A stretch of DNA of 64,000 nt from Candidatus Hydrogenedentales bacterium (GTDB taxonomy: Bacteria; Hydrogenedentota; Hydrogenedentia; Hydrogenedentales; JAEUWI01), in the NCBI GenBank assembly GCA_942492815.1, contig OW818658.1, positions 5,208,125-5,272,124 of the forward strand, given 5' to 3'. The notes beneath the pieces are model-generated. The model worked only from the letters and a program-made list of their open reading frames with translations. It did not search any database and had not been told where the DNA came from. Both the position numbers and the translations under genes were made by a program. Shown piece by piece: positions 10,587-50,856 of the stretch (within the stretch, counting starts at the first letter, position 1; each line of letters starts with the position of its first letter).

Positions 10587-10600
10587 CAGGAAATCTATCG

Positions 10601-15800: not shown

Positions 15801-15842
15801 GGGGCTCCCGTGGGGTTGATTGACAGCTCGCTATAGCTTACA

Positions 15843-15906: not shown

Positions 15907-15907
15907 T

Positions 15908-15943
15908 ACAAAATAAAAGAGCGCCGGGCATTCCCGGCGCTCT
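15908..15943 (-). terminator. Rho-independent terminator downstream of gyrA
   Basis: 10-bp stem AGAGCGCCGG/CCGGCGCTCT with a U-tract (TTTATTTTGT) following on the minus strand, about 30 nt after the gyrA stop. Confidence 0.7.
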
Positions 15944-15971
15944 GGTACTTCCATTGTGTTCGAGCAGGCGG

Positions 15972-18584: not shown

Positions 18585-18989
18585 AGTTCGAAGCGGAGCT
18601 TCGGGTACTGCATTTCCAAGCGGAGCTCTTGACATTATCCATAAATTCTTTTGGATAGGAGACTATTTTATTAGTCCCGAAGGGACGGCATATCGTAGCC
18701 CAGGGTGGAGCGAGGCACGAGCGAAACCCTGGGTATTGTTGCAATAAGATCACTAGCCCCAGCGGGGCGGCATAGGAGAACGAGGGAAATCGTCCCCGGT
18801 CTTCTATGCCATCCCTTCGGGATTTAAGAGTGTTTGGGCCAGTTGACCCAGGGTTCCGCTCGTACCTCGCTTCACCCTGGGCTACGATATGCCGCCACTG
18901 CGTGGCTAATTGGACAACTTTATGTAAACCGTTTCAGTGTAATAGCTGTAAATTTATGGGTAATGACAAAAGCGAAGCCTGGGAACGAG
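18585..18989. repeat. Family-1 palindromic structured repeat element (~400 bp), copy A, in the gyrB-gyrA intergenic region
   Basis: Left module TAGTCCCGAAGGGACGGCA...GTAGCCCAGGGTGGAGCGAGGCACGAGCGAAACCCTGGG and its inverted counterpart on the right arm; related copies at 24621-25001, 27928-28258 and 28354-28689. Confidence 0.75.
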
Positions 18990-19010
18990 CGGGTTTCCAG
19001 TTCTCCTCGC

Positions 19011-21443
<2,433 letters not shown>

Positions 21444-24423: not shown

Positions 24424-24471
24424 GGTTTCAATCAGCCTTTTCCCGCAGGGTTTCTGATAGTTCCGCTTCCT

Positions 24472-24600
24472 GGGGACGTACCGCCGCACTGGCACCCGAC
24501 ACAAGCGAGGTGAATGCTAGGGCCTTCTCCTCAGCCCGGTTAAGCGAGGCCCATACCAAAGCGGCGGCATGTCCCGGTAGATGCTGGAATCGTGACGCGA
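24472..24600. repeat. Family-2 structured repeat, partial solo unit
   Basis: GGGGACGTACCGCCGC ... GCGGCGGCATGTCCCGGTAGATGCTGGAATCGTGACGCG boxes shared with the tandem units at 50337-50855 and 57074-57720. Confidence 0.7.
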
Positions 24601-24620
24601 GAACTTTTCCTCTCGTTTCC

Positions 24621-25001
24621 CTCGTTCCCAAGCTCCGCTCTTGTCATTACCCACAAGTTTCGCGAGATAGGTGTCTATTGCTTTAGTCCCGAAGGGACGT
24701 CATATCGTAGCCCAGGGTGGAGCGAGGTACGAGCGAAACCCTGGGTATTATGGAAAAAATTCATTAGCCCCAGCGGGGCGGCATAGAAGAACCGGCAATC
24801 CATCCCTGGTTTTCTGTGTCATCCCTTCTGGATTCAATGTTTTTGGGGTCCGGTGACCCGGGGTTCCGCTCCTACCTCGCTGTACCCTGGGCTACGATAT
24901 GCCGCCACTACGTGGCTAATCAGATGCATTTCTGTGATCTGTTGCAGTGTCCTATGCTTAAGAACATATGGGCAATGACAAGAGCTCCGCTTGGGAACGA
25001 G
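24621..25001. repeat. Family-1 palindromic structured repeat element, copy B
   Basis: Terminal arms CTCGTTCCCAAGCTCCGCTCTTGTCATTACCC / GGGCAATGACAAGAGCTCCGCTTGGGAACGAG are inverted repeats; internal modules near-identical to copy A. Confidence 0.75.
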
Positions 25002-25030
25002 TGAAGGAGGATATTGTGGGCCCAGGGCAA

Positions 25031-25225
25031 TTGTGCAACAGACTGTTGCACAAATCACGGTTCGCCGGTCTAATGCAAATGCGACACAGGCTGCGCCGCA
25101 TTTATAAGTGATTTGTCGCCAGCAGCTTAAGGGATCAGCACTTGACCGATCTAATTTTGCAACAGCCTGTTCCAAAATTGACAGTATGGCTGGTTCCATC
25201 ATTTTTGCCACAGGCTGTGGCAAAA
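25031..25225. promoter_or_regulatory. Three 23-bp palindromes, consensus TTTTGCMACAG-N-CTGTKGCAAAA (candidate protein-binding sites)
   Basis: Perfect palindromes at 25031-25053 and 25203-25225, one-mismatch copy at 25155-25177. Confidence 0.5.
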
Positions 25226-25241
25226 TTGCCATTCCTTAATT

Positions 25242-25901
25242 TCAATAGGTCTTCAGGCCCGATTCATCCTCACTCTCCAGCAGGTCCTGTACCGCCCCTT
25301 GCAGTTGTTGTGCTATCTCTTTGGCACCACCTTTGCCCGGCACCACGTGATCAAAATTCATGGGCTTCCCAACGACCACGCTCAACCGCGTGAGCCTTGG
25401 CAATCGCCGGCCCTTGGGCCAGCTTTCGAAGGCCCCATGGATCGCGCAAGGCAGCACCGGCACTGGACATCCGCGCAGCAGCAGCCCTATCCCCGCCTTG
25501 AACTCGCCCAGCTCCCCCGTCGTTGATCGCGTGCCTTCCGGAAAGAGGATCAGCACGTTGCCCGGCGTTTTGAGCAACTGCTGGCAGATCTTCAGGCTCT
25601 GTTGGGGACCCGCCGTCCGGTGAAAGGGCAGGGCGTTCACGATGATCGAGGAAAACATGACGCGCGGGAGCGCGGTGAAGAAGTAGTCCGCCGCCGCCGC
25701 CGGAAATATACGATGGCGCATGCGAAAGGGCAGCATGGAAATGAGACAGATCGCGTCCCAATGACTCGAGTGATTGGCCACAAGAACGAAGGCGGAATCC
25801 TGGGGGATATTTTCCAACCCGGTGACGCGAAAGCGATGAAAGACCTTGAGCCAAACGCGAATGAACAGCCCCGCGGCGGATCGCGTCGCGAAGGTCCACA
25901 T
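25242..25901 (-). CDS. plsC: 1-acyl-sn-glycerol-3-phosphate acyltransferase (PlsC family)
   Basis: HxxxxD motif (NHSSHWD) and FPEGTRS motif; ATG at 25901 chosen (ORF track extends to 26246 across cdsA in another frame). Confidence 0.8.
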   Translation of the reverse strand: MWTFATRSAAGLFIRVWLKVFHRFRVTGLENIPQDSAFVLVANHSSHWDAICLISMLPFRMRHRIFPAAAADYFFTALPRVMFSSIIVNALPFHRTAGPQQSLKICQQLLKTPGNVLILFPEGTRSTTGELGEFKAGIGLLLRGCPVPVLPCAIHGAFESWPKGRRLPRLTRLSVVVGKPMNFDHVVPGKGGAKEIAQQLQGAVQDLLESEDESGLKTY

Positions 25902-25993: not shown

Positions 25994-26950
25994 CTATCGC
26001 ACGCCGTAGAGGCCGTAGAACCAGTTCACCATATGCAGGAACAGGGGCGCGGTGAAGATCAGGCTGTCGATGCGATCCAGAATGCCCCCATGGCCCGGAA
26101 TCAGCGCGCCCGTATCCTTGATGTTGATGTCGCGCTTGATGACGCTGATGGAAAGATCGCCCAACTGCCCGCCGATGCCCACGATGAGCCCCGTGATGAT
26201 CAGTTGAAGCGGCCCGAAGTGGGGCAGGCAGGGCGCGGCGATCCACGGGAAGACCATGGAGACGGCCAGCGCACCGAGGGATCCCTCCCAGGTTTTGTTC
26301 GGGCTGATTTGGTCGCGCAGCTTATGCCGACCAAAGGCCTTGCCAAAGCAGAAGGCCGCGATGTCGTTGATCTCCACGGCCACGATGAGGAAGAGCAGAT
26401 ACGCATAGGGCCGGTCGGAATTCGCGAGGAAGGTCAGGTGACCGAACATCCATGCAATGTACACGAAGCCCACGAGCGCGAGCGACACCAACTGCAACTG
26501 GCCCTTCGTGCGGTTGCGCAGGATCGGGATGGTCAGAATCAGCGCGATGGCGTAGACCGGCAACGTTCGAAACATGCCGAACCAGCCGTGCCGTCCATTG
26601 TAGGGATCGGTCAGGATCGCGATGAGGAAAATCGCCCCGATGGACACATAGACCGCGCCCGTCATCCACCAGTCGCGATAGAGCCCCGTGGCCCGGGCGA
26701 ACTCGCGGAAACCGATCAAGGCCACGATGGAAAAGAGTGTGATGGTGGCCTCGCGCCCGAGGAGCACGGCGGCCAGCACCGTGGGGATCATGATCAGCCA
26801 GCCCTGGTAGATACGCCACACGGCGGTGACGTTTTTCCCGAAGGCGTACTTCAGCAGCAACAGGGCCAGGCCCGCGACAATCAGCGCGCCGAGAATAAAC
26901 CCGCCGAGGAAGCGAACACTCGGGTCGTGCAGCGCGGCGTGAAAATTCAT
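25994..26950 (-). CDS. cdsA: Phosphatidate cytidylyltransferase (CDP-diglyceride synthase)
   Basis: 318 aa multi-TM protein; conserved C-terminal CdsA signature ...KRDINIKDTGALIPGHGGILDRIDSL. Confidence 0.9.
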   Translation of the reverse strand: MNFHAALHDPSVRFLGGFILGALIVAGLALLLLKYAFGKNVTAVWRIYQGWLIMIPTVLAAVLLGREATITLFSIVALIGFREFARATGLYRDWWMTGAVYVSIGAIFLIAILTDPYNGRHGWFGMFRTLPVYAIALILTIPILRNRTKGQLQLVSLALVGFVYIAWMFGHLTFLANSDRPYAYLLFLIVAVEINDIAAFCFGKAFGRHKLRDQISPNKTWEGSLGALAVSMVFPWIAAPCLPHFGPLQLIITGLIVGIGGQLGDLSISVIKRDINIKDTGALIPGHGGILDRIDSLIFTAPLFLHMVNWFYGLYGVR

Positions 26951-27612
26951 GACGCCGCCTTGCGGTTCAGCGCGTCAATAATACGCCGCAAGCGGACTAC
27001 GACCGTCTGCACGCAGCCCGCGATGACGACGATCAAGGTCCAGTCCATCACGGTCAGATGCCACAGCGTTGGGAGATTCCACCCGGCCCAGATCTGGAGC
27101 AGCAGGATCGTCGCGCCGATGTGGAGCGTCACCATGCGCCAGGGCTTCGCCATCACGCCGCTGAACTCCCGCTGCACGCCCACCGCCTGACCGAAGATGC
27201 CGATGTAGGCCGTGAACACTGCCAGGATCGCCGCCCAATAGCCCAGGGGCACCAGGCACAGTCCGCTGTGGGCCACACCCGCGAAGATCATCACATCGGA
27301 CACGCGATCCGGCACTTCATTCACGATCTCGCCATTCAGGCTCGCCTTGCCCGAAGCCAGCGCCACCATGCCGTCGAGCATGTTGAACCACAAGCGCGCA
27401 TAGCAGAAAAACGAGCCTGCCATCAGCAGCCACGGATAGGCCGACGCCTGCCAGAAGCACAGCCCCGCCAGAGCCGCCGCCACGACGGACAGATAAGAAA
27501 TCGTGTTCGGGTGGACATCCCACCGAACACAAAAACGAACCGACCCGCCCGCCCAACTCCGAAAAAGCCCCGCAATCGGCCTGCGCGACGTGGGTTTGTA
27601 GTCACTACTCAT
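26947..27612 (-). CDS. CDP-alcohol phosphatidyltransferase family protein (PgsA-like)
   Basis: Motif DGMVALASGKASLNGEIVNEVPDRVSD; 4-nt overlap with the cdsA start; multi-TM. Confidence 0.8.
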   Translation of the reverse strand: MSSDYKPTSRRPIAGLFRSWAGGSVRFCVRWDVHPNTISYLSVVAAALAGLCFWQASAYPWLLMAGSFFCYARLWFNMLDGMVALASGKASLNGEIVNEVPDRVSDVMIFAGVAHSGLCLVPLGYWAAILAVFTAYIGIFGQAVGVQREFSGVMAKPWRMVTLHIGATILLLQIWAGWNLPTLWHLTVMDWTLIVVIAGCVQTVVVRLRRIIDALNRKAAS

Positions 27613-27887
27613 CGATCCCGATACCCCTTTCCATAAATTGGCTGCGGCGTAGTATCCGGGACCCCGTCGGAAAGAATCAACAAGGTGCCGCCCAACAGGG
27701 GCTCAGGCATTCCTGCCTGAGACTGGGCTCACCCAGACATGGAAAGGCCCGGCGAGTATGTAAGGCGATCTGGGATCACAACGTCGTGTTCTCGAATGCC
27801 GAGACTTGCGCACACGCCCACAGGCCTGTCGAATGGCAACGTGAGCGCTGTCTCAGACAGGAATGTCTAAGCCCCTTGGGACCGCAC

Positions 27888-27927
27888 CCCGCGCCACGAT
27901 GCGACGTTGTTCCGCGAGGGGTGGGAG
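27888..27927 (-). pseudogene. Truncated silent copy of the hsdS 3' conserved region (cassette fragment 1)
   Basis: Minus-strand reading GTTLPPLAEQRRIVAR, then diverges into a GACAGGAATGTC hairpin motif and stops. Confidence 0.65.
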
Positions 27928-28258
27928 GGTGGTACCTCGAAGGGCCGGAAGGCGTTAGCCACGAAGTGGCGGCAGTTTGTAGCCTGGGGTGGAGCGAGGC
28001 ACGAGCGCAACCCCAGGATCACCAAACAAACACATCGAATCCGCGAAGCGGATGCCAGATTGCGATAACCCCGCTCTGCCATCCGCCGCAGGCGGATTCA
28101 ACCAGTGGGGGATTCGGACCTGGGGCTGAAGCCCCAGGCTAATGACTGATGTCCACTTCGTGGACTAAGAAAACGCTCGGAGAACACCGTCCCCTGTGCC
28201 GTCTTTCCCATATTCCTGGTTCACTCGTTCCCAATTCGTAATTCATAATTCATAATTC
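27928..28258. repeat. Family-1-like structured repeat element, tandem unit 1 downstream of hsdS
   Basis: Contains TAGCCACGAAGTGGCGGCA hairpin, CCTGGGGTGGAGCGAGGCACGAGCGCAACCCCAGG hairpin and mirrored GTCCACTTCGTGGAC / CCTGGGGCTGAAGCCCCAGG hairpins. Confidence 0.7.
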
Positions 28259-28353
28259 TCAATTCGTCAGTTCACTGACGCCCGCCTCCAACTGGCCCAC
28301 CAGCCCCATCAGCTCCTCCACCCGCGCCACGATGCGACGTTGTTCCGCCAGGA
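28259..28353 (-). pseudogene. In-frame silent copy of the hsdS 3' conserved-region cassette (fragment 2)
   Basis: Minus-strand translation AVRGTTFPLLAEQRRIVARVEELMGLVGQLEAGVSELTN-stop; differs from the hsdS C-terminus by a 15-codon in-frame deletion and a few substitutions. Confidence 0.7.
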
Positions 28354-28689
28354 GCGGAAAAGTGGTACCTCGAACGGCCGGAAGGCGTTAGCCACGAAGT
28401 GGCGGCAGTTTGTAGCCTGGGGTGGAGCGAGGCACGAGCGCAACCCCAGGATCACCAAACAAACACATCGAATCCGCGAAGCGGATGGCAGGTCACGAAG
28501 ACCATGCTCTGCCATCCGCTTCGCGGATTCAAAGAGTGGGGCATTCGGACCTGGGGCTGAAGCCCCAGGCTAATGACTGATGTCCACTTCGTGGACTAAG
28601 AAAACGCTCGGAGAACACCTCCCCCTGTACCGTTTTCCCCATATTCCTGGTTCACTCACACCCAATTCGTAATTCATAGTTCATAATTC
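28354..28689. repeat. Family-1-like structured repeat element, tandem unit 2 directly abutting the hsdS stop
   Basis: Near-identical to 27928-28258; includes a 22-bp perfect inverted repeat GAATCCGCGAAGCGGATGGCAG / CTGCCATCCGCTTCGCGGATTC. Confidence 0.7.
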
Positions 28690-30264
28690 TCAATTCGTCA
28701 GCGCGCTGACGCCCGCTTCCAGCAGCGCCACCGCCGTCCGGCGCGACGTCGCGATCTGCGCCTCCAACTGGTCCACTAGCCCCATCAACTCCTCCACCCG
28801 CGCCACGATGCGGCGTTGTTCCGCGAGGGGTGGGAGAGGAAATTGAATTGAACAAATAGTTTTCATGTTCAAAAATGGCTGGACTGCCTCGGATGCAATC
28901 CCACGAAGATACTCGGCTATAGCATTCAAGTAGATGCACAAATACTGGGCCGTAACCACCTCACCTACGCGAAATCTGCACAAACCCGTTGTGGAGAGCA
29001 TCCCCTCCGGCATCGACTCCGGATAGATGGCACAGAGTCCAATGCTTCCGACTTTACCTAAGAGTACATCGTTCGGCAATACGTTGTGCCGCCTCAGCAA
29101 CGCGAACTTTTCCTCTCGAATGTATCGAAGGTCGTTGGGATTAAACCTAAACGGCTTAACATTCACCATTCGAATCACGGGGACACCCGTCTCTATGTAA
29201 TCCGTCTTTATGTTTATAGATTGACCGAAGGGCCCGTCGACAATCGCTGACTCTGAAGCATTCCCTATCTCGCCAATTCTGCACCACGTCCAGGATTCTG
29301 GAAGCGGATGGTTGTGCCCACTCAGGCTAGAATCAGCCAGTGCTCTTGGTTTACGCATCTCCCCTGATTTAATCGCGATTTGTTTAGCGCTTTCCACCCT
29401 CGCGAGGAGCTCCTCCGCCCCTTCATCTGCCGGGTCCTGGGGCACGAGCTTTCCCCGAACGGCGAGGGTGAGGATGGACTTGCGGAGGTCGGCGGGGTCG
29501 ATGGGGCAGGCCGGGTGAAAGAGGAGCTTGAGGTTTTCCGGGGTCGGGTCCTCGTTGAACCGGGACACGCTGGCGCGGGCGAGATCGGCGTGCCGCGCGT
29601 CCCGTTCCCGCTGCTGCGCCTCCAGCCGGTCACACAGGGCCATCAAGGCATCCACCTTCGCCACAATCCGCTTCTGCTCCGCGAGCGGCGGGAGGGGAAT
29701 CTCGAATCGCTCAATCATCCCTTTTGTCAGCGCCTGCCGGGTTGCTCCAACTTGTACATCATCGATCATCACTTGAATCGCCGGACTGGCCAGAAACTTC
29801 GCAAGGAACACCGGGTCCAGATCGGGTGTGGGACGTATTATAGTCACGTGCTGGTTCACCCGCGCGCCCACCATCTCCACTGGCGCCGTCGTGACTCGGC
29901 CAATCGACGCACCTGTGATATTGAGGAGAACGTCATCCGCCTGCACGATCACATTCGAGAGCTTATCTGCTTGTTCGCTCGTCAAGAACACAAGGCCGAG
30001 AGGTTCGAAACCGCGAAAGTGAACGTTCATCGAACGAATGAGCGGAATCCCTTGAGTCACGTAAGAGACCCGGCCTCCCGACGGTGTTGCACCACTGCCG
30101 ATCTTGGAAGCCAACGACTTGAGAGTCACCAAAGGCCAGGGCTCGCCAACCGGCAACAGTTTTCCCGAGAAGGCAAGGTGAAGCACCAGTTCCCGCATCT
30201 TGTCCACAGCCCTGGGCGCGTCGGCGAACAGCTCAAAGTTCTCAAAAAAAGTGTCGAGGTTCAT
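28690..30264 (-). CDS. hsdS: Type I restriction-modification specificity subunit HsdS (two target-recognition domains)
   Basis: Central and C-terminal conserved repeats LPPLAEQKRIVAKVDALM... and LPPLAEQRRIVARVEELM...; ATG at 30264 preferred (ORF track start 30297). Confidence 0.9.
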   Translation of the reverse strand: MNLDTFFENFELFADAPRAVDKMRELVLHLAFSGKLLPVGEPWPLVTLKSLASKIGSGATPSGGRVSYVTQGIPLIRSMNVHFRGFEPLGLVFLTSEQADKLSNVIVQADDVLLNITGASIGRVTTAPVEMVGARVNQHVTIIRPTPDLDPVFLAKFLASPAIQVMIDDVQVGATRQALTKGMIERFEIPLPPLAEQKRIVAKVDALMALCDRLEAQQRERDARHADLARASVSRFNEDPTPENLKLLFHPACPIDPADLRKSILTLAVRGKLVPQDPADEGAEELLARVESAKQIAIKSGEMRKPRALADSSLSGHNHPLPESWTWCRIGEIGNASESAIVDGPFGQSINIKTDYIETGVPVIRMVNVKPFRFNPNDLRYIREEKFALLRRHNVLPNDVLLGKVGSIGLCAIYPESMPEGMLSTTGLCRFRVGEVVTAQYLCIYLNAIAEYLRGIASEAVQPFLNMKTICSIQFPLPPLAEQRRIVARVEELMGLVDQLEAQIATSRRTAVALLEAGVSALTN

Positions 30265-30676
30265 TGTACCCCCAGGGACTGACGCGCGCAGGCGCACTTG
30301 TCGCGAGCGGCACAGACCAGGCGGTCAATCGGCGATGGTGAAAGCGGCAGGCACGCCCATGCGCGTGGCTGTCCCGTCGTGAGGGAGATGCACGCGATAC
30401 TCAAAGACAGGCCCGGTCCGCGACACGCCCCCTGAATACGGGCGTCGCGCGTGCGTCGAGGGCGCTCGGGCCACGACGGGACAGCCACGGACGTTGAAAT
30501 ACCTGTTGCTCGTAAACGACCCCCGTCAATCCATGGTGCCTTTGCTACCGGAATACACCGGTCCGCGTCAGTCCCTGTGAGACTGCCCTTCACACCATCG
30601 CAGGCCCCTCGCAGGCAAGTCGCATCGGCGACTGACGCGACGCCACGGGCACGGGAAAGCCAACCGGAGCGGCCAG

Positions 30677-30865
30677 ACAAAGGAGCTTGGACATTCCTGT
30701 CCGAGACAAAGCCTGCGTTACAAATTGACAGGCCCGCTGGCATGTGCGAAACCTCCGCTATCAAAAATCGGGACTTTGGCACGCCTGGCTTTACAGACAA
30801 CTTCACAGGGCCCTTCGGTGTTGGCGCAGGCGCTGTCTCGGACAGGAATGTCCAAGCTCCTTTGT
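30677..30865. mobile_element. MITE-like element, 189 bp with 32-bp perfect terminal inverted repeats
   Basis: ACAAAGGAGCTTGGACATTCCTGTCCGAGACA at 30677-30708 and exact reverse complement at 30834-30865; related solo motif at 27845-27872; no ORF inside. Confidence 0.65.
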
Positions 30866-30913
30866 ACCGCGTATCGAAGCTGCGCGTAATACTCCCCGAA
30901 AACGAGTAGCCTC

Positions 30914-32350
30914 TCATCGCGTCAGCGCCTCCATCAATTGCGCCTTCAATGCTTCCCGGGTCTCGGCGATCTGCGCCAGGAGCTTTTCGTATTCCGGCAG
31001 GAGTTCGTCCACGTTGCCGGGGCCGGTGTCGGTGCTGTGGGGGTTCTTCAGGTCGAGGTTGTAGTTGCCCGCCTGGATGGCCGCCACGGAGACGCGCCAG
31101 GCCTGCTCGTTTTCCACGCGCTTCTTCCACCACTTTTTCTCGGGCGCGAATTCCTCAATGCGGATGGGCTTGGTCTTGTTGTAGCTCTTGGCGCCGGGGG
31201 GATAGGGGTGCTCGTAGTACCAGACCTCCTTCGTGGGCTTGCCCGCGTCGAAAAAGAGCAGATTGGTGCGGATGCCGGTGTAGGGGCTGAAGACGCCGTT
31301 GGGCAGGCGCACGATCGTGTGGAGGTTGAACTCGGTCAGGAGCCGCTCCTTGATGCGGGTCTTCACGCCTTCGCCGAAGAGGGTGCCGTCGGGCAACACG
31401 AGCCCCGCGCGGCCGCCAGGCTTGAGCAGCTTCATCAGCAGCACGAGGAAGAGATCGGCTGTTTCTCGCGTGCGGAATTCCGTCGGGAAGTTGGCCTCGA
31501 TCCCGTCTTCCTCCATGCCGCCGAAGGGCGGGTTGGTGACGATGACGTCCACGCGCTCGGTGGCCTTCCAGTCGCGCAGTGGCCGGGCGAGGGTGTTGTC
31601 GTGGCGCACGTTGGCGGGCACGTCGATGCCGTGGAGCATGAGGTTGGTCATGCAGAGGACATGGGGCAGGTGCTTCTTCTCGATGCCGTGGAAGCAGTCC
31701 TGGATCGCGCGCTCGTCGGCCTCGGTTTTGGCCTGCTTGCGCAGGTGCTCGATGGCGCAGGTGAGGAAGCCGCCGGTGCCGCAGGCGGGATCGAGGAGGG
31801 TCTCTCCGAGGCGCGGGTTGACCTGCTCCACGATGAACTGGGTGACGGCCCGGGGCGTGTAGAACTCGCCCGCGTTGCCCGCGGACTGGAGGTCTTTCAG
31901 AATGCGCTCGTAGATGTCGCCGAACATATGGCGGTCGTCGGAGGCGTTGAAATCGATGCCATTGATCTTGTTGATCACCTGGCGCATGAGGGTGCCGTTT
32001 TTCATGTAGTTGTTGGCGTCTTCAAAGCTCATGCGGATGAGCCCGGCAATCTTGTCCTGGCCGCCGGTGAGGGCCTTGAGCTTGGGCAGGAGCGTGTTGT
32101 TCACAAAATCGAGGAGGGCCTCGCCCGTGATGCCTTCCTCGTCCTTCGCCCAGTGGCTCCAGCGCAGGTGCGGGGGCAGGGGCGACTTGTAGTGGTCGCG
32201 GATGAGTTCGAGTTCCTGCTCGCGGTCATCGAATATTTTCAGGAAGAACATCCAACCGAGCTGCTCCAGGCGCTGGGCGTCGCCATAGGTGCCGGCGTCC
32301 TTGCGCATGATGTCCTGGATGGATTTTACGATATTGGAAACGTTGGACAT
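30914..32350 (-). CDS. hsdM: Type I restriction-modification DNA methyltransferase subunit HsdM
   Basis: N6-adenine methyltransferase motifs (TNPPFG, LDPACGTGGFL); 478 aa. Confidence 0.95.
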   Translation of the reverse strand: MSNVSNIVKSIQDIMRKDAGTYGDAQRLEQLGWMFFLKIFDDREQELELIRDHYKSPLPPHLRWSHWAKDEEGITGEALLDFVNNTLLPKLKALTGGQDKIAGLIRMSFEDANNYMKNGTLMRQVINKINGIDFNASDDRHMFGDIYERILKDLQSAGNAGEFYTPRAVTQFIVEQVNPRLGETLLDPACGTGGFLTCAIEHLRKQAKTEADERAIQDCFHGIEKKHLPHVLCMTNLMLHGIDVPANVRHDNTLARPLRDWKATERVDVIVTNPPFGGMEEDGIEANFPTEFRTRETADLFLVLLMKLLKPGGRAGLVLPDGTLFGEGVKTRIKERLLTEFNLHTIVRLPNGVFSPYTGIRTNLLFFDAGKPTKEVWYYEHPYPPGAKSYNKTKPIRIEEFAPEKKWWKKRVENEQAWRVSVAAIQAGNYNLDLKNPHSTDTGPGNVDELLPEYEKLLAQIAETREALKAQLMEALTR

Positions 32351-32394
32351 GGATTGGGCTTGCTTCTACGTGCGCGATTGCACGGGTGAGTTTA

Positions 32395-32467
32395 CAGGGA
32401 CGGCAGGGACATCAGGGACAACAGGAAGAGAGTATTCTGCCGTCCCTGATGTCGCTGCTGTCCCTGT
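32395..32467. promoter_or_regulatory. Imperfect inverted repeat with GGGAC heptad repeats between hsdR stop and hsdM start
   Basis: CAGGGACGGCAGGGACATCAGGGACAACAGG ... CTGCCGTCCCTGATGTCGCTGCTGTCCCTG in the 143-nt hsdR-hsdM spacer. Confidence 0.45.
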
Positions 32468-32493
32468 GAATGAGGGCGGATAATCCGCACATT

Positions 32494-34860
32494 TTACGCC
32501 ACCCTCCGGTACAGCTCGGCTTCGAGGGCCTGGATCGCCTCCAGGTACTGTTCCTTGCCGCCGAAGAGTTTCACGATCTCCGTGACGGTGCCGAATTGGG
32601 TCAGCGGAGCCACTTTCAATATTTCCAGGGACTCCACGCTCTGGATGCCGCCGTCGGCGAACTTGTCCAGCAGCGCGTCGAGCACGGCGCGCACCTCCGC
32701 GCCGTATTTCGCGAAGACGTGGCGCTTGCGCACGTTCTCCGCGCGCTCGCGCCGGGTGAGGGGCGGCTCGTCGAAGGCCACGTGGCAAATGAGGTCGAAG
32801 GCGTCGTAGTCGCGGCCCACCTGCTCGGCGAGTTCGTCCAGGAAGACGCCCTTGCCCGCGAGCTCTTCGAGGATGGCCTGCTTCCGCTCGGCATCGCTCC
32901 AAACGGTGAGAAATTCCGTCAGCGTGGCGAAGGACTTTTGCACGGTGCGGCGGCTGTAGTCGCGGAGGGATTCGGTGATGAGCTTGCCGTCGGCGTCGAG
33001 GTATTGCACGCGCTCGGTGACGATCTTTACTTCCACGTTGTCCACGTAGTACTTCTTCGGCCGTCCGCTGTCGCCCTCACCGTCGAGGGGCCAGGGCTCA
33101 CCGTCAATGTACACCTCGCCCTCTTCCTGAGCGTTCGTCGAACTTTCGTCCGGCGGCACCACGGAATCGTCGGGCCCGGGTACATAGATCTGCACCGGAT
33201 CGCCGTCGAAATCCGGATCGGCGAAGAGGGCCGTGGCGCGCTTGAAATCCATGATAGTGAAATAGAGCTTGCCGTAGTCCTCGCGGATGCGGGTGCCGCG
33301 ACCGATGATCTGCTTGAACTCGGTCATGGAGGCGATGCGCTTGTCGAGGACAATGAGGTGGCAGGTCTGGGCGTCAACGCCGGTGGACATGAGCTGGGAG
33401 GTGGTGGCGATGACCGGATAGTCCCGGCTGGGATCGATGAAATTGTCGAGCTGGGCCTTGCCCTCGGGGCTGTCGCCGGTGATGCGCATGACGTATTTGT
33501 CGTTGGCGGCGGCGAGGTCGGGGTTGGCGTTGACCAGGGCCTGGCGCATCCGCTCGGCGTGATCGATGTCGTCGCAGAAGACTATCGTCTTGGCGAAGCG
33601 GTTGGTGGCGTAGAGGAACTCGGTGATTTTCGCGGCCACGAGGGCGGTGCGCTTTTCGAGGACGAGGTTGCGATCAAAGTCGAGGATATTGTACTCGCGA
33701 TCTTCGATTTCGTGGCCGTATTTGTCGGTCTGGCCGCGCTCGGGCCGCCAGCCGTCGAGGTCTTTGTCGATGCCGACGCGGACCACCTTGTAGGGCGCGA
33801 GGAAGCCGTCGGCGATGCCTTGCTTGAGGGAGTAGGTGTAAATGGGTTCGCCGAAGTACTCGATGTTCGACACGTCGCGCGTTTCTTTGGGCGTTGCGGT
33901 GAGGCCGATCTGGGTGGCGGAGCTGAAGTACTCCAGGATCTGCCGCCAGTTGGCGTCGTCGGCCGCGCTGCCGCGATGGCACTCGTCGATCACGATGAGA
34001 TCGAAGAAGTCGGGCGAAAACTGTTTGTAGATGTTCTGATCTTCCTCGGTGCCGCTGACGGCCTGGTAGAGGGCGAGGTAGATCTCGAAGGCCTTGTCCG
34101 CCGTGCGGTTCGTGATCTTGGTCATGGCCTTGCCGAAGGGCTTGAAGTCGTTGCTCTTGGTCTGGTCGGCGAGGATGTTGCGATCGACGAGAAAGAGGAT
34201 GCGTCTGCGCGCCCCGGCCTTCCACAGCCGCCAGATGATCTGGAAGGCGGTGTAGGTCTTGCCAGTGCCGGTGGCCATAACGAGGAGGATGCGCTTCTCG
34301 CCGCGCGCGATGGCGTCCACGGTGCGGTTGATGGCGACGAGCTGGTAGTAGCGCGGGGCGCGGTCGGAGCCGTCGTCGTAGTAATCCTGGGTGGTCACGG
34401 CTTCCTGCGCGTCGGTGTAGCCTTTGGCCTGGCGATAGCGGGCCCAGAGTTCTTCGGGCGTGGGGAATTGATCGAGGGGGATCTCGCGCTCGACTGTGCC
34501 TCCGGTGCCAGTGCGGTCGTGCTCCAGAAAGGTGTCGCCGTTGGAGCTGTAAGCAAAGGGCACGTCGAGGATCTCGGCATACTCGAGCGCCTGCTGCATG
34601 CCCGCGCCCACAGCGTGGTTATTGTCCTTGGCCTCGACGACGGCAATGGGCATGTTGGGCTTGTAGAAAAGGAGGTAATCGGCTTTTTTCGCCTCGCCCC
34701 GCGACACGGACTTGCCCCGGACGATCACGCGCCCCTTGGTGAAGTGATACTCTTCGAGCATCTGGGTCATCACGTCCCACTTCGATCCGCCGGGTCCGAG
34801 GATCGCCGGCGTGATGAACTTGGTGCGGATGTCGGTCTCTGTCAGTGCCTTTTTGTCCAC
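32494..34860 (-). CDS. hsdR: Type I restriction enzyme endonuclease/helicase subunit HsdR
   Basis: 788 aa; N-terminal nuclease region, SF2 helicase motifs (ATGTGKT Walker A, DECHR); canonical HsdR N-terminus. Confidence 0.95.
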
Positions 34861-34953
34861 GTGTGCCCCTGTGTGCCTGTTTTGTATGAATCCCGCCCGG
34901 GCTCGGTGGGGCTATTGTACATGGCACCGGGCCGAAGTGGGAAGCGGGGCGGG

Positions 34954-35967
34954 CTATTTCGCCTTTTCCTCGATCCGCTTTGCTTCCCGCTCCAGTTCAG
35001 CCATTTCGTCGCTGGCGGCCTCTTCATCCAGTCTTCGCCGGTTGAACTTTTCGTACTCCCCTTCCGCGCGGGATTTTGCGAGGTCTGCGCTGATGGTGCC
35101 CGCGTTCTCCAGAACTTCCCGCCCGTTGAACTGGAGGAAGGCATTGAGCTTCCCCTCCCAATCGGCCATGTGCATGGGCTGCTTTCGCTCCGCCTGGTCT
35201 TCGGCGTAGTCGAGGTACATCGTTACGATTCGGTTGAGTCCACGCACTTCCTCCTCGGTGAGGTAGTTTTTCGCGATGGCCACGTCGCCCTTCCGAACTT
35301 TTGCGCCTTTCCAGGTGGTCAGGCCCATGTTGGGCTGGGTGGCGTCCACGCGTTCCACGATCAGCTCGGCAGCCGTGTGGCCGTGGGTCGCCCAGTGAAG
35401 TTTGTTCTGCACTGCCTTGAAGAAATGTCGGGCCTGTTCGGAGTTGGGTTCATAGTCCACAGCGAGGGCGTAGATATCCTGAATCTTCCGGTAGAAGCGT
35501 TTCTCCGAAGCGCGGATATCACGGATCCGCTCCAGGAGTTCGTCATAGTAGTCCGCGCCGAGATTGCGGCCCTCCTTGAGCCGCTCGTCGTCCATGGCGA
35601 AGCCCTTGACGAGGTATTCCCGGAGCCGCTCCGTGGCCCAGCGACGAAACTGGGTGCCCCGGTGGGAGCGAACGCGATATCCGACGGCGATGATCACGTC
35701 GAGGTTGTAGTGTTTGATTGCCCGCTGGACTTCCCGCGCGCCCTCGGATTGAACTGTCAAGTATTCCTTGACAGTTGCCCCTTCGTCGAGTTCGCCTTCC
35801 TCGTAAATATTTCGAATATGGAGACTTATGTTCTGCTTGCTGCTATGAAACAAGTCTACCAATTGCGCCTGGCTGAGCCAGACGGTCTCGTCTTCCAAGC
35901 GCACGTCGATGCGCGTCTTCCCGCCCTCGGGCTGGTATATGAGGATTTCCGATTGTGGTTCCGGCAT
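34954..35967 (-). CDS. rhuM: RhuM family protein (uncharacterised, frequently linked to Type I R-M loci)
   Basis: N-terminal region ...IYQPEGGKTRIDVRLEDETVWLSQAQLVDLFHSSKQNISLHIRNIYEEGEL typical of RhuM; directly upstream of hsdR on the same strand. Confidence 0.8.
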   Translation of the reverse strand: MPEPQSEILIYQPEGGKTRIDVRLEDETVWLSQAQLVDLFHSSKQNISLHIRNIYEEGELDEGATVKEYLTVQSEGAREVQRAIKHYNLDVIIAVGYRVRSHRGTQFRRWATERLREYLVKGFAMDDERLKEGRNLGADYYDELLERIRDIRASEKRFYRKIQDIYALAVDYEPNSEQARHFFKAVQNKLHWATHGHTAAELIVERVDATQPNMGLTTWKGAKVRKGDVAIAKNYLTEEEVRGLNRIVTMYLDYAEDQAERKQPMHMADWEGKLNAFLQFNGREVLENAGTISADLAKSRAEGEYEKFNRRRLDEEAASDEMAELEREAKRIEEKAK

Positions 35968-36237
35968 GCGGCCCTCCCGTTGTCCCGTGCCCCCGGTGCT
36001 TGACGTCGCTGGTGGCGGCGCTCACTGGAATCCATACTGCCGCACGGGATATTGAAAGCTTAGCGCAGGCTGCGGGGATGGCGCAACGCAAACGGGAGCG
36101 CGGGTTTTCCTACCCGCGTATCGGGCAACTTAGTTGCGCGATCAAGTGAGGCGGGGCTACGGGCGGAACCGAATGCGCCGTTGGCGCAACCACGTGTAGG
36201 AAGACCCGTGCTCCCGGTTTCCGTCCTGAACTCCCCC

Positions 36238-36558
36238 CTACTCCCCCATTTCTTCCCCGTCGGGCAACAGCACGATATACATATCCGACACGAGCTCTTT
36301 CCCCGCTATCTTATTGATCTTTTTCATGATCTGCCACTTGCGGTAGTTGAGCTTGTGCATCCACACGGCGCTGTCGGCCTCGATGCGGAGCTGGAGTTCT
36401 TTGATGCCCTGGGGGCGGGTGTGTTTGGCCACGGTTTCGCCGACGATCTCGGGCCAGTGTTCCCAGATCTCGGCGTGCTCCAGGTGCTTGCCCAGATCGG
36501 TGGTCTTCTTCATCTTGGCGAGGATGTCGCCAACGCCTTCCAACTTACTCCGCTTCAA
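36238..36558 (-). CDS. DUF721 domain protein (DciA-like)
   Basis: 106 aa; overlaps the recF 3' end by 14 nt; DUF721 genes typically sit in the recF/gyrB neighbourhood. Confidence 0.65.
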   Translation of the reverse strand: MKRSKLEGVGDILAKMKKTTDLGKHLEHAEIWEHWPEIVGETVAKHTRPQGIKELQLRIEADSAVWMHKLNYRKWQIMKKINKIAGKELVSDMYIVLLPDGEEMGE

Positions 36559-37618
36559 GCGTGCCTCGCGTCATCTGGTAGCGGCGGTAGGGACGCCCGC
36601 CGATTTTTTCCGCCAATTCCCGTTCGGTGGTGGTAACCAGACATTGTACCTTATCCTGGAGGGACTCGAACAGGGCTTGGGCCCGGTGCGCATCCAGCTC
36701 GGCGAGGACTTCGTCGAGCATGAGAATGGGGTATTCGCCGGTCTGGGCCTGGACCAGTTCGATCTCGGCGAGCTTGAGGGCGAGTGCGGCGGATTTCTGC
36801 TGGCCCTGGGATCCGTAGATACGGGCGGGCCGCCCTTCGATGAGGATCTCGATGTCATCGCGGTGGGGCCCGCGGAGGGTCTGCTTGCGGCGGATGTCGT
36901 GATCGCGGGTATCGCGGAGGATGGCCTCGAAGTCTTCGGCGCGCTCGAGATCGGGGGTGTAGGTCAGGGAGAGGGTCTCGGCGGTGGCGATGCGCTGGTA
37001 GGCCCCGGCGGCCTGCACGGAGAGATCGGCGATAAAGGCCGCGCGCTCCTCCATGAGGATCTGCCCGGCGGGCGCGAGCTGGGCATCCCATATTTCGAGT
37101 AACGCCGGATCGGGCCGGTGCTGCTTGAGGAGGCTGTTACGCTGCTTGAGGGCCTGGCGATAGCGCTGGAGCGCGCCAAGGTAGCGGGGGTTAATCTGGG
37201 AGATTTCCATGTCGAGGAATCGCCGCCGCATGGAGCCGCTGCCCTTGACGAGGGCCACGTCTTCGGGCGAGAAGAAGACCGTGTTGATACGGCCCAGGAT
37301 ATCGCTGACGCGGGTCTGGGGAACGCCGTTGATCTTGAAGCGCTTGGCCTTCTGCCAGTAGTGGGCTTCGAGCTGCACCTCGCGATCGCTGCGCTGGGCC
37401 GTGGCGGTGATGGAGAAGCCCTCCTCGCCGTGGCGCGCAAGCTCGCGCTCGTTCAGTGTGCGGTGGCTGCGCGCGGTGCAGACGTAGAGCAGGGCCTCCA
37501 GGAGCGAGGTCTTGCCCTGAGCGTTGTCGCCGTGGATGATGTTGAGGCCGGGTTCGGGCGCGAAGCTGAGTTCTTCAAGGCAGCGGAAGCGGCGGCAGGT
37601 GAGTTGGGTCAACCACAT
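36545..37618 (-). CDS. recF: DNA replication and repair protein RecF
   Basis: 357 aa; Walker A GDNAQGKTSLLEAL; ABC-type signature and Walker B (ILMLDEVLAELD). Confidence 0.95.
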   Translation of the reverse strand: MWLTQLTCRRFRCLEELSFAPEPGLNIIHGDNAQGKTSLLEALLYVCTARSHRTLNERELARHGEEGFSITATAQRSDREVQLEAHYWQKAKRFKINGVPQTRVSDILGRINTVFFSPEDVALVKGSGSMRRRFLDMEISQINPRYLGALQRYRQALKQRNSLLKQHRPDPALLEIWDAQLAPAGQILMEERAAFIADLSVQAAGAYQRIATAETLSLTYTPDLERAEDFEAILRDTRDHDIRRKQTLRGPHRDDIEILIEGRPARIYGSQGQQKSAALALKLAEIELVQAQTGEYPILMLDEVLAELDAHRAQALFESLQDKVQCLVTTTERELAEKIGGRPYRRYQMTRGTLEAE

Positions 37619-37699: not shown

Positions 37700-38557
37700 T
37701 CATTCCGCCAGCGTAAGCAGTTCGTCGATGGAGGCCCGCATGTTGAAGTACTGTTCGGCAACCTTGGCCAGCTTCGCGCAATCGATGTCGGCCACTTCGT
37801 AGGTTTCCGGCACGACCTCCGTGCGGTTGTCCGGGTGGGAGTAGAAACCGCTGAGGTTGCACATCTGGTTGGCGATGGAGAGACAGGCAGCAAGCACCTT
37901 GTGTTGGGGGTCGCAGGCATTGAGGTCGTGGTGGCCCCGGATGGCATTGATCACGGCCGGCGTCAGCTTCCATTTCTGGGCGAGCATGGCGCCGAGTTCG
38001 GCATGGTCCACGCCGATGACCCGCCGTTCGGCTTCGTACCAGGCGATCTTCTCCTCCCGCACGAGCGCTTCAATCTCCGTGCATTCGTCCGGCAGGTATT
38101 CTTCCAGAATCACCTTGCCGATGTCGTGGATGAGGCCATACGTGAACGCTTCATCTTCGGAGCCCACGAAGCCCTTGACGCAGCCGGACAGTACGATGGA
38201 CTTCATCGCGATACCGCAGGCCACGGAATGCTGGAGGAAATGGGTCGCGCTCGACTTCATGCAGTCAAACGCGGTGGCGGTCATGGCGAGATTCTTGAGG
38301 ACTTTCGCCCCGAGCAGCACGGTGGCGTGCTCCACGCTGGTGACTTCCTGGCCGAGTCCGTAGTAGGCGGAATTCACCAGGCGGAGGGTCTTCAGGGCAA
38401 TAGCGGGATCGGAGGAGATAACATGGGCGACGGACTTCATGTCGCAGGTGGGGTCATTGAGCATTTCGGTCAACTTGGCCACCGAATCGGGAAGACTCGG
38501 GAGCGTGACCACCTCGTCCAGGAGGGTTTCAATATCGTAGGCGTTGTCGGGTGCCAT
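37700..38557 (-). CDS. HDOD domain signalling protein
   Basis: HD-related output-domain pattern (GLIHDIGKV); ATG at 38557 (ORF track gives TTG at 38560). Confidence 0.8.
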   Translation of the reverse strand: MAPDNAYDIETLLDEVVTLPSLPDSVAKLTEMLNDPTCDMKSVAHVISSDPAIALKTLRLVNSAYYGLGQEVTSVEHATVLLGAKVLKNLAMTATAFDCMKSSATHFLQHSVACGIAMKSIVLSGCVKGFVGSEDEAFTYGLIHDIGKVILEEYLPDECTEIEALVREEKIAWYEAERRVIGVDHAELGAMLAQKWKLTPAVINAIRGHHDLNACDPQHKVLAACLSIANQMCNLSGFYSHPDNRTEVVPETYEVADIDCAKLAKVAEQYFNMRASIDELLTLAE

Positions 38558-38826
38558 CAATCAAGCCCTGCCGGCGCGGGAAAAGAGTGACTGCCAAATC
38601 CCCGTTCCTGCATGCAGAGGACTTCGAGGTACTGGCCGGGGGTCAGAAATTCGCAACCCGCCGGCAACAGGGCGGTATGGGGCTTCTTAGGATCATCCCC
38701 CGGCGTAACCAGCGTCGCGCCGTTGGGGTTGCTGGACGGCCCCACCACGATGATGCTGCCCTTGCCACCTTGCTTCAGCGCAAGACTACCCACGAGCGCC
38801 TCGCCCTGCTTTTTCCACGTAATCAA
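38557..38826 (-). CDS. Hypothetical small protein (89 aa), possibly translationally coupled to the HDOD gene
   Basis: Stop TGA overlaps the HDOD ATG (ATGA); TTG start only; no recognisable domain. Confidence 0.3.
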   Translation of the reverse strand: MITWKKQGEALVGSLALKQGGKGSIIVVGPSSNPNGATLVTPGDDPKKPHTALLPAGCEFLTPGQYLEVLCMQERGFGSHSFPAPAGLD

Positions 38827-43353: not shown

Positions 43354-46300
43354 TTATCGCGCCAGACGGAATCCGTTGATACCGTCGGAGTGGTTCGGGT
43401 CGTAGCGGAAGCGTCGGGACGAGCGCTGGTTCTCTTTTTTCACCAGTCGGGCCCAGGCGCCGCCGCGGGCAACCTTGTTGGTGCCGACTTCCGGCCCGCG
43501 CGGATTGTCCGTCACGTTTTGACTGTAATACGTGTCCAGATACCAGTCATCGCACCATTCAACCACATTGCCCGCCATGTCATAAGCCCCGATGGGGCTG
43601 GGGCTGTCCACGGTCTGGATATTGCCGTTGGGGCTGATATTGATTCCATTGAACCAGCCCACCGGCGAGGTATAGGACTCTTTCGCATCCTGGAGGATGC
43701 CCAGCGGGTTGATGAAGCTCGTGCTGCCGTAATCCGGATTGGGGCGGAAGGCGTCCACGTGGAAGTTGACCCGATCCCGCGTGGTCAGCTCGTCGCTGGT
43801 GATCGGATAGATCCAGTGCTTCTCACCGTCCCAGGCGGCCGCCCGCTCCCATTCGGCCTCGGTGGGCAGGCGGTAGCCATTCTTCGTGAAGTCGCCGGTC
43901 CACGTGTCCGTATCGTAGACCGGTTCGAGGCCGGAACGCTCGGAAAGCCAGTTGGCAAAGAGCACGGCGCCATACCACGTGGGCTCGGTCACCGGATGCG
44001 TCGCCTTGTCGTAGAAGGTGCCGGCCGGGATCCCTTCAAGGCTTTTCGTCACGAAGGCCTTGGAAGTCTGATCGTAGTCAATCCCGTCCTCCGTGAGGGC
44101 GAAAGCGAAGACCACCCGAGGCAATACGCTGTCGTAGAACCATGCATGCTCGGGGAAGCCACGCCACGTGGCGCCGTTGGGCCGCTTGAGCAAATCGCGG
44201 GAAGGATGGTGCATGTAATTCATGAACTCGGCATATTGGGCGTTGTTCACCTCAAATTTGCCGATCTCGTAGGCGTCCAGCGTAACGTCGCGGCGGGGAA
44301 GCTCATCCGACTGATCGAAAAGCGCGTCATCGCCGTCTTCCCGGGGCCCCATGGTAAAGGTGCCCGCGGGCACGGGAATCATGACCACATCTTCAAAGAA
44401 GGACGCGCTGAAGGTGCTCGTGGCGACCACCTCGGTGTCCGCGCGAGGATTGTCGGTGCTGCCATCGCTCCACTGGGAGAAGAGGTAGCCCTCATCGGGG
44501 ACCGCGGTCACCGCTGCCGTACTCGCGCCCACCGCAACATCCTGAACGGCGACACCGGCAATGTTCCCATTTTCCCCGGCCTCGTAGGTCACCGTAAGTG
44601 TCGCAGAGAAATTGGCCGTGACGGAAATATCGGCGCTGACATCCAGATCCGTGCGGGGATTGTCGAGAACGCCATCGCTCCAGCCGTCGAAGCCAAATCC
44701 GTTGGCGGGTACCGCCGTCACCGCGCGGCCATCCGCACCATCGCGGATGGTCTGGCTCGTGGGCCCGGTCAGGCTCCCGTTGCTGCCCGCGATATAAGTC
44801 ACGGTGAACAGCTCAACAAACTGGGCGGTCACCGTCACATCACTGATTACATTAACGTCGGTACGGGGATTCTGCTTCGTGTTGTCACTCCATTTGTCGA
44901 ACACGAAACTGGCATTGGCGACGGCCGTCACGGCCGTGCCCGAACCGCCTGTATTCACAATCTGGGTCGTCGTGCCGGTCAGCGTTCCGCCTTCGCTGGC
45001 CAGATACGTCAGGGTATAGGCCGGCACGAACTCCGCCGTTACGCTCAGGTCGCTTGTGGGGCCTGTGTCCACCCGGGGATTTTCCGTGCGACCATCGCTC
45101 CACTGATCGAAGCCATAGCCCTCATTGGGCACAGCGGTAACCGCCGTACCTGTGCCGCCGCTGCCGATCACCTGCTCCGTATCCCCCGTCAGGGTTCCAT
45201 TCGAGCCCGCCGTGTAAACCAAATCGATCGCCGTGGCGAAGTTCGCGGTCACGGTAACATCACCGTCCACGTCAACGTCCGTTCTGGGATTGTCCGAGCG
45301 CCCATCACTCCAGCCCGCAAAGCCGAAGGTCGCATTGGGCACCGCTGTCACCGCCGTGCCGTCCTCGCCGTCATTCACGATCTGCGAGGTCGCGCCCGTG
45401 AGGGAGCCGTTGGCCCCGGCAACATACGTCAGCGTGTACTGGGCCAGGAAATTGGCCGTAACCGTCACATCCCCATCCACATCGAGGTCCGTGCGGGGGT
45501 TGTCCTCGCTGCCATCGCTCCAGCCAAGAAAGATGAAACCCTCGCCGGGCACCGCGTTGACGGGCGTGCCATCGTTCCCGTCGATGACGGACTGCTGGGT
45601 CACGCCTTCCAGGGTGCCACCCGCGCTGGCGGTGTAGGTGAGTTGGAAGACTTCCCGGAAGTTGGCCGTAACCGCCAGGTCCGCCGTCACGTTAAGATCC
45701 GTGCGCGGATTGTCCGTGCGACCGTCGCTCCAGTCTTCAAAGACGAAGCTGTCGTTGCGCACGGCGGTGACGGGCGAGCCGCTGCCGCCCTCCGGCACGA
45801 GCTGGTTGGCGTTGCCCGCGATCGTGCCGCCCGCGCCCGCGGTGTAAGTGAGCGCGAAGAGTTCGGCAAAGTTGGCGGTCACGGAAATGTCCGCGCCCAC
45901 CGTCCGGTCACGGCGGGGATTGAGGGTGCTGCCATCGCTCCAGTTGACGAAGGCGTAACCGTCCAGAGGCACCGCCGTCACGGCGGAACCGTCCGCGCCG
46001 GGGGCCACACTCTGGGGCGTAGTGCCTTCGATGGTGCCGCCGGGGCCCGCCGCATAGGTCAGGGAAAAGGGATCGCCCCCATCGCAGGGGCCTTCAAAAC
46101 CACCCAGCGCAATAATCTGATCGAGGCGGTTACGGCTGACCTGCAGGGTCTCCGCCGTCGGCGTGCCTTCGCCGAAGAGCAGGCACACGGTAACAAGGTC
46201 GCCCCCATCATCCTCGGGTGTGCCGGGAAGATCGAGCACCACAATCGTGTGCGGTGCAATGGAACTGTCCAAGCCGGCCGTTCCCACCACGGCGACATCG

Positions 46301-50331: not shown

Positions 50332-50336
50332 TCTGA

Positions 50337-50855: not shown

Positions 50856-50856
50856 T

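Follow-up and report, generated by a model that had tools for sequence, protein, structure and literature searches.

Genes and borders of the variable block

The window analyzed here is a 64,000-nt stretch of a high-GC (~0.61) Candidatus Hydrogenedentota genome. Between dciA and a gene similar to cytidine diphosphate (CDP)-alcohol phosphatidyltransferases it contains a variable block of 8550 bp (27683-36232, minus strand), which carries rhuM and the hsdR, hsdM and hsdS genes of a Type I restriction-modification (R-M) system; below, this block is called the island, and the place it occupies the slot. In the order of transcription, the minus strand comprises an HDOD gene (37700-38560), recF (36545-37618), dciA of the DUF721 family (36238-36558), rhuM (34954-35967), hsdR (32494-34860), hsdM (30914-32350), hsdS (28690-30264 if it starts from ATG, or to 30297 if it starts from GTG), the CDP-alcohol phosphatidyltransferase-like gene (26947-27612), cdsA and an acyltransferase gene. 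Beyond the latter there are plus-strand genes encoding a histidine kinase and a response regulator, followed by gyrB (19011-21428) and gyrA (15972-18494). The original prediction, made from the sequence of the window, had placed rhuM-hsdR-hsdM-hsdS on the minus strand downstream of the overlapping recF and DUF721 genes, and profile matches confirm this arrangement at the coordinates given above.

On its upstream side, the slot is flanked by the core gene recF (TIGR00611, 366 bits), whose product is kept at 54-96% amino acid (aa) identity across all Hydrogenedentota loci compared, and which overlaps dciA (PF05258, 81.8 bits) by 14 nt; the stop codon of dciA forms the proximal edge of the slot. 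The downstream flank is the CDP-alcohol phosphatidyltransferase-like core gene, with 91% aa identity in the loci L001 and L085 of two relatives and with NCBIfam matches to phosphatidylinositol-phosphate (PIP) and archaetidylinositol-phosphate synthases that are below the cut-off. The end of dciA is separated from the start of gyrB by 14.8 kb, in agreement with the approximately 15 kb given originally, but only 8.55 kb of this distance is the island, and the remaining 6.2 kb is made up of lipid-synthesis and two-component genes, a block that relatives lacking the island have in part.

Occupancy of the slot in relatives

For comparison, RecF loci were gathered from species-representative genomes and metagenomes, and the proteins of the window were mapped onto each of them. 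This yielded about 12 Hydrogenedentota loci, many of them on short contigs of metagenome-assembled genomes; the RecF loci nearest to the window (96% aa identity) come from Hydrogenedentales metagenome-assembled genomes.

Four same-genus sequences, in which recF is ~88-91% identical at the nucleotide level to that of the window and to each other, differ at the slot. In L001 the slot is empty, that is, dciA is followed by the CDP-alcohol phosphatidyltransferase-like gene ~0.3 kb further on, there are no R-M genes, and ~210 bp replace the island. In L085 the replacement is ~1.3 kb long and contains one gene of 372 aa with a DUF4268 domain (PADLOC PDC-S11, 2e-113) between dciA and the phosphatidyltransferase-like gene. 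In L002 dciA is followed by hsdR 93 nt later and by hsdM, with no rhuM. A 7-kb contig (P0271; HsdM is 98% identical) encodes DciA-HsdR-HsdM-HsdS, also with no rhuM. Among more distant relatives, three have the order recF-dciA-gyrB(-gyrA) and a slot without cargo (L004, L007, L087), while AbiD/Abi_2 lies between dciA and gyrB in L003, and a DUF1016/YhcG gene (PDC-S02, 8e-140) takes this place in L084. Finally, the slot of L005 contains a 337-aa open reading frame (ORF) 3' of dciA (5290-6303), for which no match was found in Pfam, PADLOC, NCBIfam or PDB; by its position, it is a possible candidate for an uncharacterised defence gene.

The borders of the slot are sharp. Similarity of the window to L001, L002 and L085 ends at most ~10 nt past the dciA stop codon (GAGTAGGGGGG), and at the distal border the similarity of the window, L001 and L085 resumes at the shared motif GGTTGATTC..CGACGGG.TCCCGGATACTACG, located ~75-90 nt upstream of the next core gene, so that the breakpoints are identical in these three sequences. 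Altogether, the Hydrogenedentota loci show five cargo states and cargo-free sites with shared breakpoints, and all cargoes share the strand of dciA. The cargo is mostly defence-related, as Type I R-M, PDC-S05, PDC-S11, PDC-S02 and AbiD match PADLOC models, though the sample is small.

Since the states of the slot differ between relatives, the R-M system can be said to sit in a variable slot, with rhuM as an additional insertion that can be separated from it. The synteny comparison proposed with the original prediction thus gave a clear result: the gene order of the window is not common to all relatives. The proposal that a defence island had lodged next to recF is supported as far as the variable slot is concerned, but the size of the island, including the repeats, is 8.55 kb and not 7.3 kb.

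Neither an integrase, a transposase nor a tRNA gene was found in or beside 27683-36232, and there is no target-site duplication at the borders. One family of repetitive extragenic palindromic (REP) elements and miniature inverted-repeat transposable elements (MITEs) does bracket the hsdS part of the block (27806-27885 and 30677-30865), as might be expected if the block were itself mobile, whether as an integrative island or as a composite transposon, and had entered by site-specific recombination or by transposition. Still, cargoes that differ from each other have the same borders, and shared borders in the absence of an integrase, transposase, tRNA gene or target-site duplication argue for a hotspot refilled by recombination, making a self-mobile element extremely improbable.

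Hotspots of defence genes in core genomes are known from other bacteria, for example the hsd region of E. coli, a hypervariable "immigration control region", and the hotspots between conserved genes in the pan-genomes of E. coli and Pseudomonas. The slot resembles them in having fixed borders in housekeeping genes, alternative defence cargo or an empty site, and no dedicated recombinase. It differs from them in being anchored at the 3' end of the recF-dciA operon in another phylum and in having all cargo co-oriented, again with the reservation that the sample is small. In this uncultured and little-studied phylum, a replication-gene operon is the anchor of a well-delimited defence hotspot, and the slot could be used for mining more defence genes of Hydrogenedentota, one candidate being the 337-aa cargo of L005.

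The Type I restriction-modification system

In Type I enzymes, the HsdM2-HsdS complex methylates adenines in a bipartite target chosen by the two target-recognition domains of HsdS. When two HsdR subunits are added, an unmethylated target triggers ATP-driven translocation and cleavage at a distance.

The hsdR gene encodes a protein of 788 aa assigned to the restriction, translocase and nuclease subunits of the EcoAI family (type IB): it passes the NCBIfam equivalog model of EcoAI/FtnUII (NF046051) with 1202 bits against the cut-off of 550, scores 1194 bits with PADLOC REase_I, and has the Pfam domains ResIII, Helicase_C and EcoEI_R_C. Its translation contains the D..EAK motif of the N-terminal PD-(D/E)xK nuclease, GTGKT and DECH of the superfamily 2 (SF2) translocase, and QIIGRGTR. 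The product of hsdM, the N6-adenine methyltransferase subunit (478 aa), matches PF02384 (N6_Mtase) with 243 bits, PF12161 (HsdM_N) and PADLOC MTase_I (745 bits), and has the S-adenosylmethionine-binding motif DPACGTGGF and the NPPF motif (TNPPFGG). The specificity subunit HsdS (524 aa) is matched by PF01420 (Methylase_S) in two stretches and has two target-recognition domains as well as two conserved regions (CR1 and CR2) that align with each other; PADLOC Specificity_I (2e-163) aligns from residue 1 of the version starting from ATG.

All three proteins are full length and retain the catalytic motifs. Moreover, the ratio of nonsynonymous to synonymous substitution rates (dN/dS) in comparison with L002 is 0.10 for hsdR and 0.05 for hsdM, and given the range of 0.05-0.18 observed for hsdR, hsdM and rhuM, we conclude that these genes are maintained by selection. 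Judging from this purifying selection, the enzyme is probably active. Likeness to EcoAI/EcoEI-type (type IB) systems covers the HsdR equivalog match and the EcoEI_R_C domain, the order hsdR-hsdM-hsdS, NPPF in HsdM, and HsdS with two target-recognition domains set apart by conserved regions, while the differences are that the host belongs to the uncultured phylum Hydrogenedentota and that hsdS is detached by a repeat-laden spacer of 616-649 bp. With respect to the mechanism of Type I restriction there is nothing new here, the system being an ordinary, intact type IB one.

The target-recognition domains of hsdS stand out by composition. The GC content in third codon positions (GC3) is.85-.93 in the conserved regions,.53-.78 in the first target-recognition domain and.45-.65 in the second one, and thus in both domains (28840-29340 and 29700-30150) it is well below that of the conserved regions and of the rest of the operon. 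Domain swapping typically leaves such a pattern, which is consistent with import of the domains from donors with lower GC.

Repeats around hsdS

The spacer between hsdM and hsdS (30265-30913) is unusually long, 616-649 bp depending on the hsdS start, and contains a REP/MITE pair with 41-nt arms (30677-30717 and 30825-30865; inverted repeat I2, 95% complementary) and an ORF with no Pfam family. In the P0271 contig the corresponding gap is 304 bp, and it is followed by an intact HsdS of 516 aa. A REP element of the same family as 30677-30865 marks the distal end of the island (27806-27885; D5/D15, inverted repeats I1/I4), so that copies of the REP-like element GCGCTGTCTC.GACAGGAATGTC.AAGC bracket hsdS together with the tandem array described below.

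The repeat elements that the original prediction noted on the far side of the R-M genes are real: 3' of hsdS there are two tandem units of 431-433 bp each (27888-28732, minus strand; repeat families D1-D3), 90-92% identical to each other. Each unit combines a MITE core with the spacer found 3' of the hsdS stop codon and with a pseudo-copy of the C-terminal conserved region of hsdS; the pseudo-tails are translated as ...LLAEQRRIVARVEELMGLVGQLEAGVSELTN* and LPPLAEQRRIVARG. In both units the MITE meets the tail precisely where the second target-recognition domain borders on the conserved region. Such units could reflect tandem duplication, or they could be footprints of replacement of the second target-recognition domain.

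The MITE family is palindromic and ~390 bp long, with full copies at 24617-25005 and 18613-18990, cores in the tandem units (27950-28170 and 28385-28600) and one copy in L001 (17846-18036). The Rfam motif Acido-Lenti-1 (RF01687) scores 38-49 bits across the MITE copies and 38-40 bits on both arms in the tandem units, which suggests that here it is an inverted MITE arm rather than a stand-alone small RNA.

Invasion by repeats might also mean that the R-M system is a silenced, decaying remnant that no longer restricts. The MITE/REP pair inside the hsdM-hsdS gap, the pseudo-copies of the hsdS tail with MITE cores downstream, and the lack of a convincing hsdS promoter in the scan described below would fit decay. 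On the other hand, all three ORFs are of full length with catalytic motifs, the dN/dS values of 0.05-0.10 indicate purifying selection, and the relative with the 304-bp gap still has an intact HsdS; we therefore regard decay as highly unlikely.

The rhuM cassette

The rhuM product matches PF13310 with 402 bits (cut-off 33.7) and corresponds to the PADLOC candidate PDC-S05 (PDLC04853, 5.4e-151 over residues 1-334). The gene adjoins hsdR on its upstream side, 93 nt apart and on the same strand. Together with ~120 nt upstream and 8 nt downstream, the coding sequence forms a module of 1145 bp (34946-36090, minus strand). In the comparison of the window with L002, which has no rhuM, the segment 34925-36226 is an indel, and the 1145-bp module recurs in three other contigs, being contiguous with hsdR in L166 (89.8% nucleotide identity over 2.2 kb) and followed by the DUF4268/PDC-S11 gene, that is, the cargo of L085, in L164 and L165. 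Thus, for presence or absence of rhuM and the R-M or PDC-S11 cargo all four combinations exist, and therefore recombination between modules or repeated insertion is needed. Between dciA and the module there is a REP-like element (36093-36141) with a second copy at 55558-55606 (I6, 49 nt, 90% complementary); it is not common to L164 or L166.

Homologues of rhuM with 73-82% identity occur alone in three loci (L081, L082, L167), and in L168 a homologue and Abi_2 are flanked by hsdM and hsdS genes belonging to another Type I family. Relatives of both RhuM and HsdM are also found on plasmids. In comparisons with its relatives, rhuM has dN/dS of 0.07-0.18.

The AlphaFold model of RhuM built with 29 close homologues was poor, with a predicted local distance difference test (pLDDT) score of 59, while a more diverse alignment of 48 sequences gave pLDDT 83. 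The N-terminal part of the protein is predicted to be a winged-helix DNA-binding domain, and the C-terminal part a conserved domain consisting of helices only. Residues R152, E155, Q187, N188, K233 and N234 are invariant. A toxin fold of the Fic/DOC type was considered and rejected, given no Fic/DOC match in Pfam, no sequence match in PDB, and the model with pLDDT 83.

According to the prediction of Anantharaman et al. (2013, PMC3710099), RhuM is a toxin domain of R-M operons, and one PDC-S05 gene gave ~1000-fold protection against T7 and T5 (preprint, bioRxiv 10.1101/2024.09.26.614923). Literature from 2023 onward retrieved under the name "RhuM" consisted of rheumatology papers only. The original prediction described RhuM-family genes as recurrently embedded in Type I R-M loci without a defined function; the former holds, while the latter is no longer quite accurate, since the family is PDC-S05, of which one member is reported to be protective (same preprint).

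Following the proposal of Anantharaman et al., RhuM could be a functional accessory of this very Type I system, the two forming a multi-layer unit of R-M and toxin. Its closeness to the co-oriented hsdR, 93 nt downstream, the recurrence of this adjacency in L166 and the recurrent embedding of RhuM in Type I loci are in line with such a role. However, in L002 and the P0271 contig the R-M system is intact and under purifying selection in the absence of rhuM, the same 1145-bp module precedes the DUF4268 gene in L164, close homologues occur alone, and PADLOC treats the gene as a single-gene system, a single gene having been reported as protective. This makes an accessory role unlikely, and most probably RhuM would serve as an anti-phage effector on its own, not as a subunit of the R-M enzyme.

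As a member of the RhuM family (PF13310/PDC-S05), the gene is typical in its full-length profile match and in its location in a Type I R-M locus (PMC3710099), but here it occupies the edge of the locus, upstream of hsdR, instead of the place between hsdM and hsdS, and it is demonstrably separable, as there are relatives without rhuM and relatives with rhuM plus another defence gene. Accessory genes of Type I loci include the anticodon nucleases PrrC/RloC, Abi_2, DUF1016 and Fic/DOC; RhuM, Abi_2/AbiD and DUF1016 are also found in the slot described here, with the difference that in Hydrogenedentota such genes also fill the slot alone, without R-M (L003, L084, L085). The locus provides clean natural evidence for RhuM (PDC-S05) as a self-contained module and not an R-M subunit, and the relatives could constitute a natural set with and without the gene for testing RhuM.

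Composition and age of the island

The composition check proposed with the original prediction revealed no anomaly. The GC content is 0.605 in the island and 0.610 in the rest of the window; the tetranucleotide distance is 0.126 for the island and averages 0.113 (sd 0.019) over other segments, and 17% of the window segments of the same size deviate as much or more. The GC3 values of hsdM (.89) and hsdR (.87) are host-like, and the only compositional deviation within the island is that of the hsdS target-recognition domains.

Recent acquisition, the other part of that prediction, is contradicted by divergence from L002: synonymous divergence (dS) is 0.22 for hsdR and 0.20 for hsdM, and 0.25 for the flanking HDOD gene and 0.49 for recF. 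As dS of hsdR and hsdM is about equal to that of the flanking genes, the arrival of the R-M system is not recent. These values suggest that it has occupied this site since roughly the time when the lineages of the window and L002 separated, or that it has been exchanged between them. At the same time, HsdM is 83-89% identical at the aa level to proteins from many phyla, while RecF does not exceed 44% outside Hydrogenedentota; therefore, the HsdM family moves horizontally. The relatives in question come from Delongbacteria, Planctomycetaceae, Methylomirabilis, Terriglobus, Desulfonatronum, Methylococcus, Chloroflexi and Fibrobacteria; the unrelated groups represented include Acidobacteria, Planctomycetes, Chloroflexi, Fibrobacteria, Desulfobacterota, Gammaproteobacteria and Methylomirabilis. 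Acquisition is thus real on the scale of the phylum, but it is not recent.

These data bear on the possibility that the ancestor of the genus already had R-M at this site and passed it on vertically, the empty slot of L001 and the DUF4268 gene of L085 resulting from deletion or replacement, so that nothing has lodged in the lineage of the window. Host-like composition with GC3 of.87-.89 for hsdR and hsdM, dS equal to that of the flanks, and an R-M system in the same place in four sequences of the genus (those of the window, L002, L166 and the P0271 contig) all agree with vertical inheritance. It is nevertheless doubtful, since all more distant Hydrogenedentota lack R-M here, having dciA-gyrB or other cargo, and at least one gain is needed; in addition, the identity of HsdM across phyla shows horizontal movement of the family, and the four-way combinations of rhuM with R-M or PDC-S11 demand recombination or repeated insertion.

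A probable composite defence island in a variable slot

Taken together, the data are best explained by a composite defence island of two independent modules in an integrase-free variable slot directly 3' of the recF-dciA operon, to which we assign a probability of roughly 0.8. The first module would be the complete EcoAI-family (type IB) system hsdR-hsdM-hsdS, presumably acting by the mechanism established for this family, and the second one the 1.15-kb rhuM cassette with its predicted DNA-binding and helical domains. New cargo may enter the slot by recombination, either via the conserved flanks or among the cargo modules, which would account for the differing defence genes of the relatives.

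Several observations weigh against this interpretation. The hsdR, hsdM and rhuM genes carry no foreign compositional signal in the sliding tetranucleotide analysis, in the comparison with equal-sized segments or in per-gene GC3, and therefore composition can neither date the island nor point to its source. As dS of hsdR and hsdM is similar to that of the flanks, both gain and loss within the genus would fit. The relatives are few, and many of them are represented by short contigs. Expression of hsdS is not assured, as the gene is separated from hsdM by the long spacer with MITE insertions, and the scan for promoters and terminators yielded no signal above chance expectation, the only notable promoter-like site being TTCCCA-N18-TACAAT upstream of hsdR.

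A more far-reaching version, quite improbable when taken as a whole, is that the bases following dciA are a phylum-wide, recombinase-free docking site, at which single-gene defence cassettes and whole R-M operons are swapped and read through from recF-dciA. The rhuM cassette may be a portable front-end placed upstream of unrelated defence genes (Type I R-M in the window, DUF4268 in other loci), and its product may be a DdrC-like sensor of DNA ends or DNA damage for them. To the same speculative picture belongs the possibility that replacement of the second target-recognition domain left its record in the array of hsdS tails and MITEs or takes place through it. If true, the docking site would tie the expression of defence genes to a replication and repair operon.

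Other repeats and neighboring genes

The 143-nt spacer between hsdR and hsdM contains a hairpin with 34-nt arms composed of CAGGGAC-type repeats (32391-32470; inverted repeat I13), which is kept in L002. Intergenic hairpins with arms made of short words (CAGGGAC, CACGGAT, GAAGGAT) are also present at 10469-10594 and 51826-51930. Two intergenic tandem arrays (50331-50871 and 57068-57734) consist of ~255-330-bp units with the core GGGGACGTACCGCCG, fragments of which are also found near 24470 and in the L001 spacer downstream of dciA.

Antisense to hsdR and rhuM, there is a plus-strand ORF of 1177 aa starting from ATG (32470-36003). It was rejected as a gene and is considered a shadow ORF, because its GC content by codon position is.82/.39/.63 in a high-GC genome.

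In three relatives (L001, 11113-11580; L002; L085) a gene encoding a GNAT acetyltransferase of 155 aa is located between recF and dciA; it is not at this place in the window or in more distant relatives, where recF and dciA overlap. In L001, the region 3' of the acyltransferase gene (14695-17717) contains genes of a Hydrolase_4-Methyltransf_20 fusion and a PAP2-DSP phosphatase, neither of which is present anywhere in the window, the matching place being occupied by a MITE (24424-25242). Finally, a minus-strand gene of the window (43354-47061) encodes a protein of 1235 aa with eight InlB B-repeat (Flg_new_2) units, visible as a 210-nt periodicity of the DNA, and a C-terminal FGE-sulfatase domain.

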